Shown here piece by piece: positions 4,080-37,229 of a stretch of DNA of 42,850 nucleotides. Positions within the stretch are counted from its first letter, which is position 1. The number at the start of each line of letters is the position of its first letter. The notes beneath the pieces were generated by a model. That model was not told the DNA's origin and searched no databases. It worked only from the letters and a program-made list of their open reading frames with translations. The position numbers and the translations under genes are program-made. Source of the stretch: a virus; UHGV virus genome UHGV-0182515. One strand, written 5' to 3'.

Positions 4080-4487
4080 TCACTCTCCTTTGATGCGAAT
4101 GCCAGTAGCGCGGATTGCATCGATGACTTCAGAAACTTTGTATGCCATTACCGTTTGGTAATCATCGTGAAAATCTGTTCGATGAAGCATGCTGCTACGT
4201 TCCGGGAGCGATATTTCCCGCGCTTCCAGTTCTGCAATGCGCTTTTTTGCTGCTTCCAGTTCATCCAGTAATTCCAGCACGGTAGCCGGATTAGCCTTGG
4301 CAACAAAATCCCGGACTGGCTTACAATCAATCTCCGCAATGGGTTGATACGATGTGTAGCCATGCTGTCTTGTATAACTACCGTGACGAATAACGAAAAA
4401 ATCACCATTTATTTTTTTAGCCTGCCACTTATCTTCACCGGCTTTCTCTGCCGCTTCACGCAGTGCCTGATAGTCAATCTTGCTCAC
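4080..4487 (-). CDS. Hypothetical coiled-coil protein; probable GTG start
   Basis: AAGGAGG Shine-Dalgarno lies 6 nt upstream of a GTG at 4487-4485; the longer ATG-initiated ORF (to 4679) would overlap the Lar-like gene by about 200 bp. Confidence 0.45.
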   Translation of the reverse strand: MSKIDYQALREAAEKAGEDKWQAKKINGDFFVIRHGSYTRQHGYTSYQPIAEIDCKPVRDFVAKANPATVLELLDELEAAKKRIAELEAREISLPERSSMLHRTDFHDDYQTVMAYKVSEVIDAIRATGIRIKGE

Positions 4488-4707
4488 TGGTTGCCTCCTT
4501 TGCTCGCTGATTCCACTCTGCTCTAACCTCTGAATAAAAAATCGCGCAGTCATTTCCAGGCGCTGCATATTTGCTACCAGATTGAGCGCGACACGTACCG
4601 CATCGAACGAAATAGAATCGACCGCCAGAGCCATATTCAGGGTGATCTGCTTCGCTGGCAACGTGCGCTGCACCGCCACAGAATGGACATGGTAGTAGGT
4701 TGCTCAT
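4474..4707 (-). CDS. Lar-family restriction alleviation protein
   Basis: [12 protein letters not shown]....CGTC zinc-ribbon pattern characteristic of Lar-like proteins of lambdoid prophages. Confidence 0.55.
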   Translation of the reverse strand: MSNLLPCPFCGGAAHVASEADHPEYGSGGRFYFVRCGTCRAQSGSKYAAPGNDCAIFYSEVRAEWNQRAKEATSEQD

Positions 4708-5141
4708 GAATGCACTCCCTTGTGAAGCTGTTCCGCACAATGCAGCAGGGCGTCAGTCGCCTCTTTCACCGTAACGCAGTCGCCATCGTCCAGCCCGGAC
4801 ACCGACGCGTGCTTAACGAACGCCGCGCAAAGGTCATCAAACGCCTTAGCCCGGACTTCAGTCAGGAAAGCATCGGTGGCCGGGGTTTTGCAGGACATTT
4901 GAATTGCCTTCTCTGTGTATAAAACACCCGTTCGATTGGCGGTATACATGATGGTGTTTACAGCATCTTGATGTGCTGATTTCACAGCCTCAACTTCAGC
5001 AGCCAGCGCCGCGCACTTGGCCTCCGCTTCAGCAAATTTACGCACCAGATATTCAGCGTTTGTTTCGTTAACCTTTAAATCTCGTGGGATGCATTTACCT
5101 TTCAGAAAACCATCCATCTCAATTAGTGACATTTGTTTCAT
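4704..5141 (-). CDS. Hypothetical phage early protein
   Basis: ORF in the early operon; ATGA overlap with the upstream small gene. Confidence 0.4.
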
Positions 5142-5312: not shown

Positions 5313-5606
5313 TCAGTCATTACTGATAGCGCCATAGCGTGAGCGGTAATTACGCAGGCGCGGGTCAATTTCAGGGAAGTGGGTATATGTGGCTTTGCGG
5401 AATGGTCGGATTGATGTCTGGTAAATTCGCTCGCGTTCTTCTTTCTCTGCAAGCCATATACAATGGCGAAATTCCTTTTCCTCTTTCGTTTCCTGCGGTA
5501 GCGACATTATCCGGTCGTAGTTTTTCCTGAATTTATCCAGCACCTCCGATACGGAATTGCCGGAACAGCGGCGCGCGTCATCCGCACCATACAGAGGCGC
5601 TGGCAT
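5313..5606 (-). CDS. Hypothetical phage early protein (97 aa)
   Basis: ORF in the early operon; no recognisable domain. Confidence 0.4.
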
Positions 5607-13500: not shown

Positions 13501-13573
13501 CCATCTACATCACTGAGCTAATAACAGGCCTGCTGGTAATCGCAGGCCTTTTTATTTGGGGGAGAGGGAAGTC

Positions 13574-14014
13574 ATGAAAAAACTAACCTTTGAAATTCGA
13601 TCTCCGGCACATCAGCAAAACGCTATTCACGCAGTACAGCAAATCCTTCCAGACCCAACCAAACCAATCGTAGTAACCATTCAGGAACGCAACCGCAGCT
13701 TAGACCAAAACAGGAAGCTTTGGGCTTGCCTTGGTGACGTCTCTCGTCAGGTTGAATGGCATGGTCGCTGGCTGGATGCAGAAAGCTGGAAGTGTGTGTT
13801 TACCGCAGCATTAAAGCAGCAGGGCGTTGTTCCTAACCTTGCCGGGAATGGCTTTGTGGTAATAGGCCAGTCAACCAGCAGGATGCGTGTAAGCGAATTT
13901 GCGGAGCTATTAGAGCTTATACAGGCATTCGGTACAGAGCATGGCGTTAAGTGGTCAGACGAAGCGAGACTGGCTCTGGAGTGGAAAGCGCGATGGGGAG
14001 ACAGGGCGGCATGA
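13574..14014 (+). CDS. ninB: NinB (Orf-family recombination mediator)
   Basis: [56 protein letters not shown].. matches lambda NinB. Confidence 0.85.
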
Positions 14015-14187
14015 GACGACAGCGACGAAGTATCACCGACATCATCTGCGAAAACTGCAAATACCTTCCAACGAAGCGCTCCAGAAATAAACGCAAGCCA
14101 ATCCCAAAAGAATCTGACGTAAAAACCTTCAACTACACGGCTCACCTGTGGGATATCCGGTGGCTAAGACATCGTGCGAGGAAATGA
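14011..14187 (+). CDS. ninE: NinE-like small basic protein
   Basis: ATGA overlap with the ninB stop; [23 protein letters not shown].. recalled as NinE-like. Confidence 0.55.
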
Positions 14188-14189
14188 CG

Positions 14190-15134
14190 ATGACTGCGTA
14201 TTACAACGAAATAGATCCGTATGCAGCGCAATGGCTGCGTAACTTAATTGACGCTGGAGAAATTGCCCCCGGTTATGTAGATGAAAGGAGTATTGAAGAT
14301 GTCACACCAGGTGATTTGCGAGGATTTACCCAGCACCACTTTTTTGCAGGAATCGGAGTTTGGAGCTATGCACTTAGAAAAGCAGGATGGCCAGACAACA
14401 AGAGTATCTGGACAGGAAGTTGCCCATGCCAACCTTTCAGCTCGGCAGGCAAAGGAAAAGGGGTTGATGACGAGCGGCACTTATGGCCGGCATTCTTCTG
14501 GCTTATTGAAAAATGCAATCCTGGCATCGTTATTGGCGAACAGGTTGCAAGCGCAGACGGCCTCGCTTGGCTCGACCTTGTACAAACTGACTTGGAAGGT
14601 GCGAACTACACCTCTGCAGGTACCGATATTTGCGCTGCGGGCTTCGGTTCTCCGCACATTAGGCAGCGATTGTATTGGGTGGCCTACTCCAACGACAAAT
14701 ATCAACTTTCAGCCAGAGACGCGCAGGGGAATTCAGAACCTATCTGGATGCGTGAGACTAGCGGGATGGCAAACTCCTTTAGCGAACGATGCAACAGGTT
14801 CAACGCATTGCTACAGCGGAAAAGACAAGAGCGGAACCCCAAGAATCTGCTTGAAACTTCCCGGGACGGTGAAGCTATGTACCCATTACCGGTTAACGGC
14901 TTCTGGAGAGATGCAGACTGGCTTTACTGTAGAGATGAAAAATATCGTCCAGTTAGACCCGGCTCATTCCCGATGGTTAATGGCATTGCCAAAAGCTTGG
15001 GACGAGGCAAGTCCACACTGGGAAGAATGGCAAAGCGCAATCAAGATCAGCGAATTATTGGATATGGAAACGCAATCAATGCAGAAGTAGCAACGGCATT
15101 CGTGAAAGTTTGTATGGAGGTTGTTAATGCTTAG
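14190..15134 (+). CDS. DNA (cytosine-5)-methyltransferase, orphan
   Basis: Motif I FFAGIGVW, motif IV PCQPFSSAG (catalytic Cys), motif VIII RQR and motif X GYGNAI are present; GEQV sits where ENV is expected. No adjacent restriction endonuclease gene. Confidence 0.7.
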   Translation: MTAYYNEIDPYAAQWLRNLIDAGEIAPGYVDERSIEDVTPGDLRGFTQHHFFAGIGVWSYALRKAGWPDNKSIWTGSCPCQPFSSAGKGKGVDDERHLWPAFFWLIEKCNPGIVIGEQVASADGLAWLDLVQTDLEGANYTSAGTDICAAGFGSPHIRQRLYWVAYSNDKYQLSARDAQGNSEPIWMRETSGMANSFSERCNRFNALLQRKRQERNPKNLLETSRDGEAMYPLPVNGFWRDADWLYCRDEKYRPVRPGSFPMVNGIAKSLGRGKSTLGRMAKRNQDQRIIGYGNAINAEVATAFVKVCMEVVNA

Positions 15135-15303
15135 CCCATCCCAATCCATTCAATACCAGAAAGAAAGCGTCGAGCGGGCTTTAACGTGCGCTAACTGCGG
15201 TCAGAAGCTGCATGTGCTGGAAGTTCACGTGTGTGAGCACTGCTGTGCAGAACTGATGAGCGATCCGAATAGCTCAATGTACGAGGAAGAAGACGATGAA
15301 TGA
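15127..15303 (+). CDS. ninF: NinF-like protein
   Basis: MLSPSQSIQYQKESVERALTCANCGQKLHVLEVHVCEHCCAELMSDPNSS.. resembles lambda NinF. Confidence 0.7.
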   Translation: MLSPSQSIQYQKESVERALTCANCGQKLHVLEVHVCEHCCAELMSDPNSSMYEEEDDE

Positions 15304-15508
15304 TTACCTGAAATGGTATCTCTACCACCGCTGGTTAATTAAGTTTGCTGTAAAAGACTGGATGACAGCGGATGCCAACAAGCTTAAGCAAAGAAAAGAC
15401 TATTACTACGCCAGAATGAAGGAAAACTACTGCTCAATTCGCACTCGCATATTTATTAAAAAAGACCTTCAGTCAATTCTTCAATTGCGAGGGAAGGTAA
15501 ATGGCTAA
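15296..15508 (+). CDS. Hypothetical nin-region protein
   Basis: ORF coupled by ATGA overlap to ninF. Confidence 0.4.
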   Translation: MNDYLKWYLYHRWLIKFAVKDWMTADANKLKQRKDYYYARMKENYCSIRTRIFIKKDLQSILQLRGKVNG

Positions 15509-18637: not shown

Positions 18638-18662
18638 AGCCTCGCGATGCGGGGCTTTTTTT
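18638..18662 (+). terminator. Rho-independent terminator after the lysis cassette
   Basis: Hairpin gcctcgc-gat-gcggggc followed by TTTTTTT. Confidence 0.55.
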
Positions 18663-18811
18663 ACATCTGAATTTCACAGCGCATCTCACGCGCATATTAC
18701 ATCACCCGAGCCTTTCAGAAAGTTGAGCCTGAGAACTGCCGTATATGGTGGCGACCATCTCGGGGCGGCTTTTCTGTGAGACAGGCTCACTTTCTAAAAG
18801 GTAAAGACGCT

Positions 18812-19300
18812 ATGAACCAATTAGAAGAAAAGCTTCAAAGAATGATTTCCTTATACAAGGAAGATAACTGCCAAAAAGTTCCTGAAAACATCGCAGAGTT
18901 AATGGAATTGGCAAGTGAATTTTCTGGCATGCTTAAGTCGTCAGGTGTTCGGTCAGCGTTCTTTGTTGAAATGCTGATGCACGGCGGACTTATGGCAACA
19001 ATGAGACGTGTAATGGAAGACCAGAGAAAAGAACCTCCTCAGGTATACGTTTTGTCATCGAAGAAAACTGGGCTAACCAAAATTGGGTATTCATCCAACA
19101 TTCCACAACGCATCAAATCGCTTGGCAACTCTGGACCAGACTGCTTGAAGCTTGAGTGCCTGATCCCTGGTGGAAGAGAAACTGAAAACATGCTTCATCG
19201 CAAATTTGCCGCAAAGAGAAAGCACGGTGAATGGTTCGCCCTGTCCAAGGATGACATTGAGGGATTGAAATCTGTAGCGATTACTTCCGATGGCTATTAA
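18812..19300 (+). CDS. T5orf172 / GIY-YIG-like domain protein (moron)
   Basis: C-terminal half PQVYVLSSKKTGLTKIGYSSN..R..SLG....E..LHRKFAAKRKHGEWF fits the T5orf172 pattern (VYVL, KIGxT, EWF); sits between the Rz terminator and the packaging genes. Confidence 0.55.
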   Translation: MNQLEEKLQRMISLYKEDNCQKVPENIAELMELASEFSGMLKSSGVRSAFFVEMLMHGGLMATMRRVMEDQRKEPPQVYVLSSKKTGLTKIGYSSNIPQRIKSLGNSGPDCLKLECLIPGGRETENMLHRKFAAKRKHGEWFALSKDDIEGLKSVAITSDGY

Positions 19301-19685
19301 TGCTTGTTTAGAGCAATTTTCATAACAACTCTTCATTACAAAGCCCATCTACTGGTGGGCTTGATAATGAAACCGTGATTTACATCCCCACAATCCGGGT
19401 ATGTAAAAGATAGTTCAGGCGAGAACGGATTTAACTAAATCTGTGCGCCACCAGTTAACGGCAGTACCACGAAACAACCCAAGCCAGTAAGTGGGGAAAT
19501 AACACTGGCAGCCACTGAAAGATGAACCTCCTGCCTTATGGCAAAAAAGATTCTTTGTGGTGGCGGACTGATGGAAAGACATCGGTTATTGCAGAGACCA
19601 TTCAATGAGTGGTCTCGACAATGGCTTATACCCTACACGGGATAACTTAACTGATATCCCTTTTAACGGATAAACGGAGCCAACA

Positions 19686-36728: not shown

Positions 36729-37229
36729 TTACCTACTCAACAGATGGTCAGCAACCATGTTTGCTGCCTTATAAGCTATAGCCGCTTCATCAATGGTGTT
36801 GAATCTCCCAAGGGTTATGTTTTTACCTGAGACATTTATCTGAGCTTGCCATTGATTTCTGGCTTGACAGAAAGTTACCCCCTTGATTCCAGCATTGCTA
36901 TTTCGAGGTCCGACATTTAATGCATTTACGACTCTGCTGACATCCCTAAGGTTTGAGATTGCGTTATTTCTTCTGTTTCTATCAATGTGGTCAATCTCTT
37001 GTTTGGGCCATTCGCCATATACATACAGCCAGGCAAGTCTATGTGCAAAATATCTTACGCCATCAATATTAATTGCGTTATATCCATAAGAAATTGTGCC
37101 AGCAACTTTCCCAACAGCACCTCTGGCGCTTAATTTCTTTTTCCAAGTGAAAATTCCTGTTTCTTTATTGTAATCGAGAACCTCCATAAGGCGCTCCCGA
37201 GTTACTACCTCGTGACGTCTCTTACTCAT
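36729..37229 (-). CDS. HNH endonuclease with AP2-type DNA-binding domain
   Basis: HNH region [32 protein letters not shown] and an AP2-like segment [41 protein letters not shown] upstream of the ATG at 37229. Confidence 0.7.

Follow-up and report, generated by a model that had tools for sequence, protein, structure and literature searches.

The viral genome UHGV-0182515 (42,850 nucleotides, referred to as the window when its whole length is meant) carries on its plus strand a DNA cytosine methyltransferase gene, alpha, inside which a second gene, beta, is nested in the +1 reading frame. Beta is a real, conserved and separately initiated gene under selection, and both frames are selected, each within its own segments. 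The two genes probably encode the two polypeptides of a single solitary, phage-borne C5-cytosine methyltransferase. In the mechanism proposed here, alpha (frame 0) would form the large domain, binding S-adenosylmethionine (AdoMet) and carrying the catalytic residues, with motifs in the order II-III-I-IV-VI(EQV)-VIII followed by an unconstrained linker, a conserved block and motif X. Beta would be translated from its own AGGAG-8 nt-ATG signal inside alpha, would supply the missing small domain, i.e., target recognition and motif IX, and would dock onto alpha to give an active enzyme, in the manner of the nested beta chain of M.EcoHK31I. PR would drive early transcription of the two genes upon induction or infection, and the enzyme would methylate replicating phage DNA, protecting it from host Type II restriction. 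We infer that the two chains associate, that beta acts in recognition, that 5-methylcytosine is the product, that the enzyme counters restriction and that it is expressed at this stage. The two genes and the translation start of beta are located as follows.

14190-15134, plus strand: alpha gene, an open reading frame (ORF) of 314 residues for the C5-methyltransferase large (catalytic/AdoMet) domain, a linker and motif X.
14299-15090, plus strand: beta gene, 263 residues, nested in alpha (+1 frame); proposed as the small (recognition) subunit.
14286-14301, plus strand: ribosome-binding site of beta, AGGAG (14286-14290), with an 8-nt spacer and the ATG (14299-14301), set in alpha codons R33 (AGG), S34 (AGT) and D37 (GAT).

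A same-strand, alternative-frame ORF at 14281-15090 had been pointed out in a preliminary description of the window, and it is confirmed here to lie in the +1 frame; about 85% of the alpha gene is also read in this second frame. This ORF comprises 269 codons, whereas synonymous shuffles of alpha give a longest +1 stretch of ~105 codons on average and reach 269 codons in 0.04% of trials at a guanine plus cytosine (GC) content of 0.49. The +1 frame was also followed in 70 homologous genes, drawn from IMG/VR and from phage records, with protein identities of 47-57% and GC of 0.49-0.66. Each of them keeps it open, over ~64-98% of the gene length (median ~88%), and the corresponding shuffles yield ~100-160 codons (p<=0.005 for most of the 70). 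The +2 frame of these homologues holds 9-26 stops. Moreover, the start of beta is itself conserved. The ATG at 14299 is kept in 53 of 67 distinct homologues, 51 of which have AGGAG or GGAG placed 8 nt upstream, and the alpha codons that compose this signal depart from family-wide usage: R33 is AGG or CGG in 53/67 (against 35%), S34 is AGY in 53/67 (against 50%) and D37 is GAT in 59/67 (against 41%). In the Kagunavirus K1ind2, the nested ORF begins six codons earlier and has its own GGAG at 6 nt.

Selection in the two frames was read from codon-position entropy and from naive Nei-Gojobori ratios of nonsynonymous to synonymous substitution (dN/dS). The frame under constraint changes along the gene as listed below, where beta residues are numbered from the ORF start at 14281.

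Alpha 1-75, beta 8-50: high variability at alpha third positions (1.2-1.45 bits); dN/dS 2.16 in beta and 0.08 in alpha; alpha alone selected.
Alpha 75-165 (motifs IV-VIII), beta 51-130: constraint on alpha synonymous sites (0.6-0.98); dN/dS 0.71 in beta and 0.38 in alpha; both selected.
Alpha ~165-235 and 251-275 (with the linker), beta 131-205: third position of the +1 frame the most variable; dN/dS 0.51 in beta and 1.28 in alpha; beta alone selected.
Alpha 236-262 (the conserved block), beta 206-245: both frames constrained; dN/dS 0.45 in beta and 0.44 in alpha; both selected.
Alpha 281-314, no beta: frame 0 alone constrained; alpha alone selected.

The alpha product is a genuine C5-cytosine methyltransferase homologue, with predicted fold and catalytic motifs intact, as the preliminary description had proposed for 14190-15134. 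It matches Pfam PF00145 at 52.5 bits (cut-off 22), in agreement with its RefSeq name. The match covers residues 73-200 only, equivalent to profile positions 64-196 of 324, and TIGR00675 scores 42 bits, under its cut-off of 100.65. The best solved relative by sequence is M.HhaI (E 1e-6, residues 68-169). The AlphaFold2 model is confident for residues 1-168 and for a C-terminal helix at 298-313 (predicted local distance difference test score, pLDDT, ~81), and pLDDT falls to 25-40 at residues 170-294. The motifs recognised in alpha are given below, their invariance being judged in an alignment of 14 relatives with 57-74% identity.

14196-14300, plus strand: motifs II-III (AYYNEIDPYAAQWLRNL ... 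SIEDV), residues 3-37, N-terminal; aligned by hhalign to HhaI 36-71.
14340-14387, plus strand: transposed motif I (FFAGIGVWSYALRKAG), residues 51-66, between motifs III and IV; F51, F52, A53, G54 and G56 invariant.
14424-14432, plus strand: motif IV, P79-C80-Q81 with the catalytic Cys, aligned to HhaI P80-C81-Q82; family-invariant.
14538-14546, plus strand: motif VI, E117-Q118-V119, aligned to ENV of HhaI; EQV family-invariant.
14652-14669, plus strand: motif VIII, PHIRQR, residues 155-160, aligned to PQKRER of HhaI; H156, I157, R158 and R160 invariant.
15063-15104, plus strand: motif X (GYGNAINAEVATAF), with GYGNAI at residues 292-297, followed by the C-terminal helix; Y292, G293, N294, A295 and I296 invariant; selected in frame 0 only.

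Motifs I, IV (PCQ), VIII and X, all named in the preliminary description, are present, align to HhaI and are invariant among the relatives. Its observation that EQV replaces ENV also holds, with the Glu and Val of the HhaI motif retained and Asn changed to Gln. In these alignments, EQV appears to be an invariant signature of a very large family rather than a lesion or an oddity of a single copy. PHIRQR is a variant of QxRxR that keeps both arginines. The loss of catalytic residues considered in the same description is not seen, the Cys, Glu and Arg being intact on alignment. As a separate observation, the alpha homologue of Escherichia phage CarlMeissner (Vequintavirus; L086:1284-2138) reads GSPCCQPFS at motif IV, where the family has GS(C/P)PCQPFS, the Pro of Pro-Cys being replaced by Cys; here, the open part of the +1 frame begins only roughly a third into the gene.

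The order of the motifs, which had been described as the usual one, is refuted by the TIGR00675 and hhalign alignments and reads II-III-I-IV-VI-VIII...X. TIGR00675 aligns alpha residues 6-176 to profile positions 27-170, and hhalign places residues 3-37 on HhaI 36-71 (E 0.055, 39% identity). A further hhalign alignment sets alpha 37-66 on HhaI 3-32 and passes directly to motif IV, with HhaI 33-72 deleted (E 6e-13); here, FFAGIG (residues 51-56) is aligned to FAGLGG of HhaI. Furthermore, all members of the alpha family begin with M-x-AYYNEID (motif II) and continue with SIEDV (motif III). Motif I of alpha thus appears, on these alignments, to be transposed behind motif III. A topology classification of methyltransferases gives two topologies, C and F, for 5-methylcytosine enzymes (bioRxiv 10.1101/2023.12.13.571470), and the II-III-I-IV order of alpha is absent from both in this classification, the one compared.

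Between motifs VIII and X, alpha includes two parts that differ in constraint.

14691-14894, plus strand: 'passenger' linker, alpha residues ~168-235, open but unconstrained in its amino acids in the alpha frame.
14895-14978, plus strand: conserved block NGFWRDADWLYCRDEKYRPVRPGSFPMV, alpha residues 236-263, with invariant columns N236-P261; dual-coded with the motif-IX-like region of beta.

Neither a target-recognition domain nor motif IX was detected in alpha, hhalign coverage stopping at residue 170. Insertions and deletions in the linker correspond to the gain or loss of ~36-residue W-x-T-P modules in beta and make the middle of alpha unalignable. The linker is nevertheless stop-free in 46 genes, where shuffles synonymous for beta predict 1.8 stops (median P(none) 0.10), and full-length alpha ORFs of 286-448 residues occur in 70/70 recovered genes. 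Since alpha is kept stop-free through the passenger segment and is full-length in all these genes, both products seem to be required. Thus, of the solitary, conventional single-chain enzyme first described, the solitary, phage-borne character stands, and the conventional single-chain nature does not, the linker being unconstrained, motif I moved and beta nested within the gene.

The beta protein is identical to the GenBank 'hypothetical protein' EQV84084.1. Alignments of 21 and 103 family members reveal a variable N-terminal tail of ~45 residues, a conserved N-domain, an array of W-x-T-P modules and a nearly invariant C-terminus with the consensus QLNPAHSRWLMGLPxxWD. In the window, these regions are the following.

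14428-14661, plus strand: beta N-domain, residues 44-121, with the family consensus LSARQAKExGLLTSGTYG, GSTLYKLTWKxxxTP and RASVRRTS; overprinted on alpha motifs IV-VIII.
14671-14895, plus strand: two W-x-T-P modules, beta residues 125-199, WPTP at residue 128 and WQTP at residue 157; purifying selection in the beta frame only.
14950-15003, plus strand: motif-IX-like QLDPAHSRWLMALPKAWD, beta residues 218-235; nearly invariant.

The analogy of M.EcoHK31I, whose beta chain associates through its N-terminus (PMC2836561), makes the N-domain a candidate alpha-binding region, and the W-x-T-P region is the proposed target-recognition region, matching the position of the recognition domain in collinear enzymes. 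The number of modules per protein ranges from 2 to 7, with a median spacing of 36 residues (proteins P0241-P0340, alignment A5), and family proteins of 267-453 residues gain ~35 residues with each module; beta of the window, with two modules, lies at the minimum. A Pfam scan of 21 members and of 10 long proteins of the family gave no match, and in hmmsearch of the PDB with two beta profiles, A2 found no match and A5 only chance matches to peptidases. Beta does match phrog_1008 and phrog_31772, both labelled 'DNA methyltransferase'.

The family is widespread. In an exhaustive profile search, beta had matches with E<=1e-3 in 13,608 clusters (50% identity), of which 6,235 reached E<=1e-30; the top matches mostly start at, or a few residues from, beta residue 1. 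By tblastn, beta is found in 243 phage records. Frames were compared in four GenBank phages (K1ind2, fTaEco01, CarlMeissner of Vequintavirus and RcPutin of Casjensviridae), and in all four beta is read in +1 relative to the annotated methylase. The same nesting is thus seen in Kagunavirus, Vequintavirus and Casjensviridae, and also in the epsilon15-like Salmonella phage 65FD (L002); by tblastn, homologues of beta also occur in Detrevirus and in ~30-kb Salmonella phages. Annotation of the pair is uneven. The 2010 record of Escherichia phage K1ind2 lists both nested ORFs, as 'C-specific methylase' (1365-2294) and 'Mte8-like protein' (1453-2250; L083). In Pseudomonas phage PMG1 (L087:1300-2400), beta alone is annotated, as 'DNA methyltransferase', because alpha is frameshifted in the deposited record, either by a sequencing error or as a natural alpha-null. 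A literature search for 'Mte8', 'C-specific methylase' and overlapping or nested methylase genes returned neither a functional description nor the origin of the name 'Mte8'. It is a tentative suggestion, on the doubtful side of even, that these genes constitute a very large family of phage C5-methyltransferases, obligately dual-coding and so far essentially undescribed, in which a tandem-module recognition subunit is overprinted on the catalytic gene. Speculatively, the gain and loss of modules may retarget or multiply the specificity, with the other frame absorbing the changes as a disordered linker.

Beta is proposed to supply recognition and motif IX because the +1 frame is selected, and alpha unconstrained, where collinear enzymes encode both, i.e., between motifs VIII and X. 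Beta was compared with HhaI in three hhalign runs, using HhaI alone, an HhaI-family alignment (whose homologues, 71-79% identical, are too alike for a diverse profile) and the 103-sequence beta profile. In all three, only the C-terminus of beta pairs, and it does so with HhaI 262-293, which is motif IX (RKLHPRECARVMGYPDSY). Chimeras joining the N-terminus of alpha, the modules and C-terminus of beta and the C-terminus of alpha were also scored against PF00145, together with a shuffled control. The K1ind2 chimera spans positions 62-320 of the 324 in the profile, and its shuffled control ends at 169. As a best inference, beta is a recognition and motif IX subunit; the argument is mainly positional, the similarity of its sequence to known recognition domains being non-significant.

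Several results weigh against this interpretation. The pairing of beta with HhaI motif IX is not significant (E 0.27-0.53), the gain of the chimeras over the shuffled control is small (~+1.5 bits for K1ind2 and ~+8 bits for the window), and coverage of PF00145 by the window chimera is not end to end. Beta has no match in Pfam or PDB, nor in NCBIfam, and an AlphaFold2 model of beta alone is uninformative, with a mean pLDDT of 36. Furthermore, gene overlap biases the naive dN/dS ratios, of which the reversal from segment to segment alone is informative, and the first ~45 residues of beta are free of amino-acid constraint, so that the true start could lie farther downstream in some members. The anti-restriction role is drawn from genomic context alone, and published expression, interaction or methylation results were found for no member of the family.

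Other explanations of the same observations have to be considered. It is unlikely that beta, while real and expressed, has a function unrelated to methylation (e.g., accessory or anti-defence) and that alpha works alone or with a host factor through unconventional recognition. Such a reading would fit the lack of significant similarity between beta and any characterised domain (hhalign E>0.2), the novel accessory proteins for which overprinted genes of viruses often code (PMC8227390, a general review) and the conserved block of alpha at residues 236-263, which could contribute to DNA binding. However, the selected segment of beta sits at the position of the recognition domain and motif IX, exactly where alpha is unconstrained and unfoldable, the nesting is universal across very divergent phages, the sole placement of beta on HhaI is motif IX, and M.EcoHK31I offers a precedent (PMC2836561). 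Strongly disfavoured, with a very low probability, is a conventional single-polypeptide orphan enzyme whose +1 ORF is a by-product of composition and codon usage. RefSeq gives one coding sequence and Pfam recognises the domain, and GC-rich genes can contain long off-frame ORFs, p rising to 0.05-0.17 in the six homologues whose GC is 0.61-0.66. Against this stand the rarity of such an ORF in shuffles at the GC content of the window, the openness of the +1 frame in the whole homologue set and a Shine-Dalgarno (SD)-ATG signal built from biased codons, as well as third-position variability and dN/dS that favour the +1 frame centrally, where alpha is unconstrained and predicted to be disordered. 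A chance-ORF model for beta was rejected on the shuffles and the codon-position statistics.

It is just as improbable that a single polypeptide arises by programmed frameshifting, in which ribosomes would pass from alpha to +1 after motif VIII and back again for motif X to give a collinear enzyme. The order of the selected segments (alpha, beta, alpha) does mimic a collinear methylase, and one chimera aligns end to end with PF00145. Nevertheless, two shifts are needed, alpha is kept open through the passenger region, and beta has a conserved N-domain over motifs IV-VIII and its own conserved SD-ATG, which lies ~380 nt upstream of the first junction. No conserved -1 slippery heptamer was found at either frame junction in 63 genes, and the frameshift-fusion model was rejected for this lack together with the SD-ATG of beta itself. 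The least probable explanation is a non-methyl product or a non-duplex substrate, e.g., C5-carboxymethyl transfer or methylation of RNA or single-stranded DNA, in which the Gln in place of Asn in motif VI would reflect an altered chemistry.

The two-chain methyltransferase is thus the reading retained here, and its genomic setting bears on its role. Alpha is identical (100%) to RefSeq WP_077635079.1, 'DNA cytosine methyltransferase', of a prophage in Escherichia coli FDAARGOS_1256, where RefSeq annotates the alpha coding sequence alone and skips beta. The allele is rare: among 5,426 complete E. coli genomes, only 11 carry it. By blastn, the window and this P22-like prophage, which adjoins tRNA-Arg and intS, are 99.9% identical save for two swapped segments. 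These lie at 13566-14011 (a different NinB allele) and 18661-19458 (lysis/KilA-N region) and resemble mosaic module swaps. The gene order is replication protein, DnaB-type helicase, NinB, NinE, methylase, NinF, a 70-residue ORF, YbcO, RusA, NinH and Q. The methylase, placed between the replication genes and Q and co-oriented with ninB, ninE, ninF, rusA and ninH, has the placement of a lambdoid nin-region gene, and its assignment to the nin region in the preliminary description is borne out by this order and by the flanking genes.

14011-14187, plus strand: ninE, upstream neighbour, an ORF with RefSeq 'NinE family protein' at the matching position.
15127-15303, plus strand: ninF, downstream neighbour; Pfam NinF E 1.9e-12, RefSeq 'protein NinF'; 8-nt overlap with the end of alpha.
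15296-15508, plus strand: ORF of 70 residues between ninF and ybcO, without Pfam match; RefSeq hypothetical protein.
~36729-37187, minus strand: ORF annotated with 'HNH endonuclease signature motif', beside the tailspike gene and 22 kb from the methylase.

With NinE and NinF as neighbours, the methylase has no restriction endonuclease gene adjacent to it, as noted before. Restriction endonuclease families were likewise absent from the 124 ORFs flanking 62 homologous loci, whose neighbours include DnaT-domain proteins, phage replication proteins, polymerases and other methylases (MT-A70, Dam, D12). The gene beside the methylase encodes an MT-A70 methyltransferase in 7 of the 62 loci and a Dam or D12-class adenine methylase in 4 (L002-L082); in phages, several solitary methylases are thus often found next to one another. 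The Prokaryotic Genome Annotation Pipeline (PGAP) assigns no restriction endonuclease to any part of the FDAARGOS_1256 prophage, in which the only nuclease-like genes are RusA, DUF1364 (Pfam YbcO, a putative nuclease), a 3'-5' exonuclease and the HNH-motif protein, which by its position is not a candidate for a cognate restriction enzyme. Tblastn of plasmids returned no family member linked to a restriction-modification system. A protective, anti-restriction role is reasonable because no restriction partner is found here or at the 62 homologous loci, and self-protective methylation early in lytic growth would be the most economical role. Two further ORFs, at 4474-4740 and 5313-5606 (both minus strand), are named by the PGAP annotation of FDAARGOS_1256 as Lar-family restriction-alleviation and anti-RecBCD proteins; therefore, the prophage carries several anti-restriction functions besides the methylase. 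The nin region of lambda is silent in lysogens, its genes being transcribed from PR only once induction has occurred. By analogy, transcription of the nin genes of this prophage would be driven by PR after induction. Since nin genes are silent in lysogens, a comparison of the methylomes of a lysogen and a cured strain would probably be uninformative.

If the two-chain reading is true, RefSeq in this case and most of the phage GenBank records examined annotate half of a two-gene enzyme, the other half being named, where it is annotated at all, 'hypothetical protein' or 'Mte8-like protein'. An attempt to determine the specificity with a cloned or codon-optimised version of the annotated ORF would then destroy beta, and no activity would be seen. 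Few same-strand dual-coding regions of phages would be as long and as widely conserved as this locus, and it would be a clean natural system for studies of overprinting, since selection on one frame coincides exactly with the passenger stretch of the other. In addition, a recognition subunit that is modular and distinct from the catalytic chain would be an attractive starting point for engineered, targeted cytosine methylation, for which M.EcoHK31I has been used on account of its separate chains (PMC2836561). Finally, a curiosity of 1995, M.EcoHK31I, would be generalised to a common anti-restriction device of phages; if M.EcoHK31I belongs to the family, the novelty drops and the mechanism is confirmed.

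M.EcoHK31I (YGGCCR), a natural two-chain C5-methyltransferase from E. coli HK31 described by Lee, Kam and Shaw (1995), has an alpha chain bearing motifs I-VIII plus X, together with a beta chain with motif IX whose coding sequence lies within alpha in a different frame; the enzyme requires both chains, which associate through the N-terminus of beta (PMC2836561, PMC3404938). The beta locus described here is likewise a second, selected ORF lying wholly inside a methylase gene, on the same strand and in another frame, and the host is enterobacterial in both cases. The alpha chain of M.EcoHK31I is reportedly ~309 residues long, similar to the 314 residues of alpha here. In contrast, M.EcoHK31I belongs to a restriction-modification system, whereas the present enzyme is solitary and phage-borne. 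Its recognition domain is assigned to alpha in the literature, whereas here the beta frame is selected in that segment. The transposition of motif I present here is unreported there, the two being compared by description only. M.EcoHK31I may be a member of the same family.

Other known enzymes share parts of this arrangement. In the two-subunit C5-methyltransferase M.AquI (CYCGRG), the small chain comprises the distal variable region with motifs IX and X (PMC3404938). As in M.AquI, the proposed split here would fall within the variable region and separate a catalytic chain from a smaller chain that completes the small domain; however, motif X stays on alpha here, and beta is nested within alpha. 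The permuted zeta class or 'topology F' (e.g., M2.Eco31I) similarly shows a natural rearrangement of motif order in the C5-methyltransferase fold, but is distinguished by an N-terminal helix Hd1 and a recognition domain outside the catalytic domain (bioRxiv 10.1101/2023.12.13.571470). Alpha shares with canonical monomeric enzymes such as M.HhaI and M.HaeIII (PF00145) the large-domain fold, the PCQ nucleophile, the Glu of motif VI, both Arg residues of motif VIII and motif X. It differs from them in having II-III-I-IV instead of I-II-III-IV and EQV instead of ENV, and in lacking the recognition domain and motif IX in its own chain. The C5-methyltransferases of the Bacillus phages SPR, phi3T and rho11s are solitary and multispecific enzymes in which the variable region is a tandem series of short recognition modules. 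By description, this array recalls the 2-7 W-x-T-P modules of beta, and it may be speculated that each module is a separate recognition domain, although the Bacillus phage enzymes are single polypeptides with collinear motifs.

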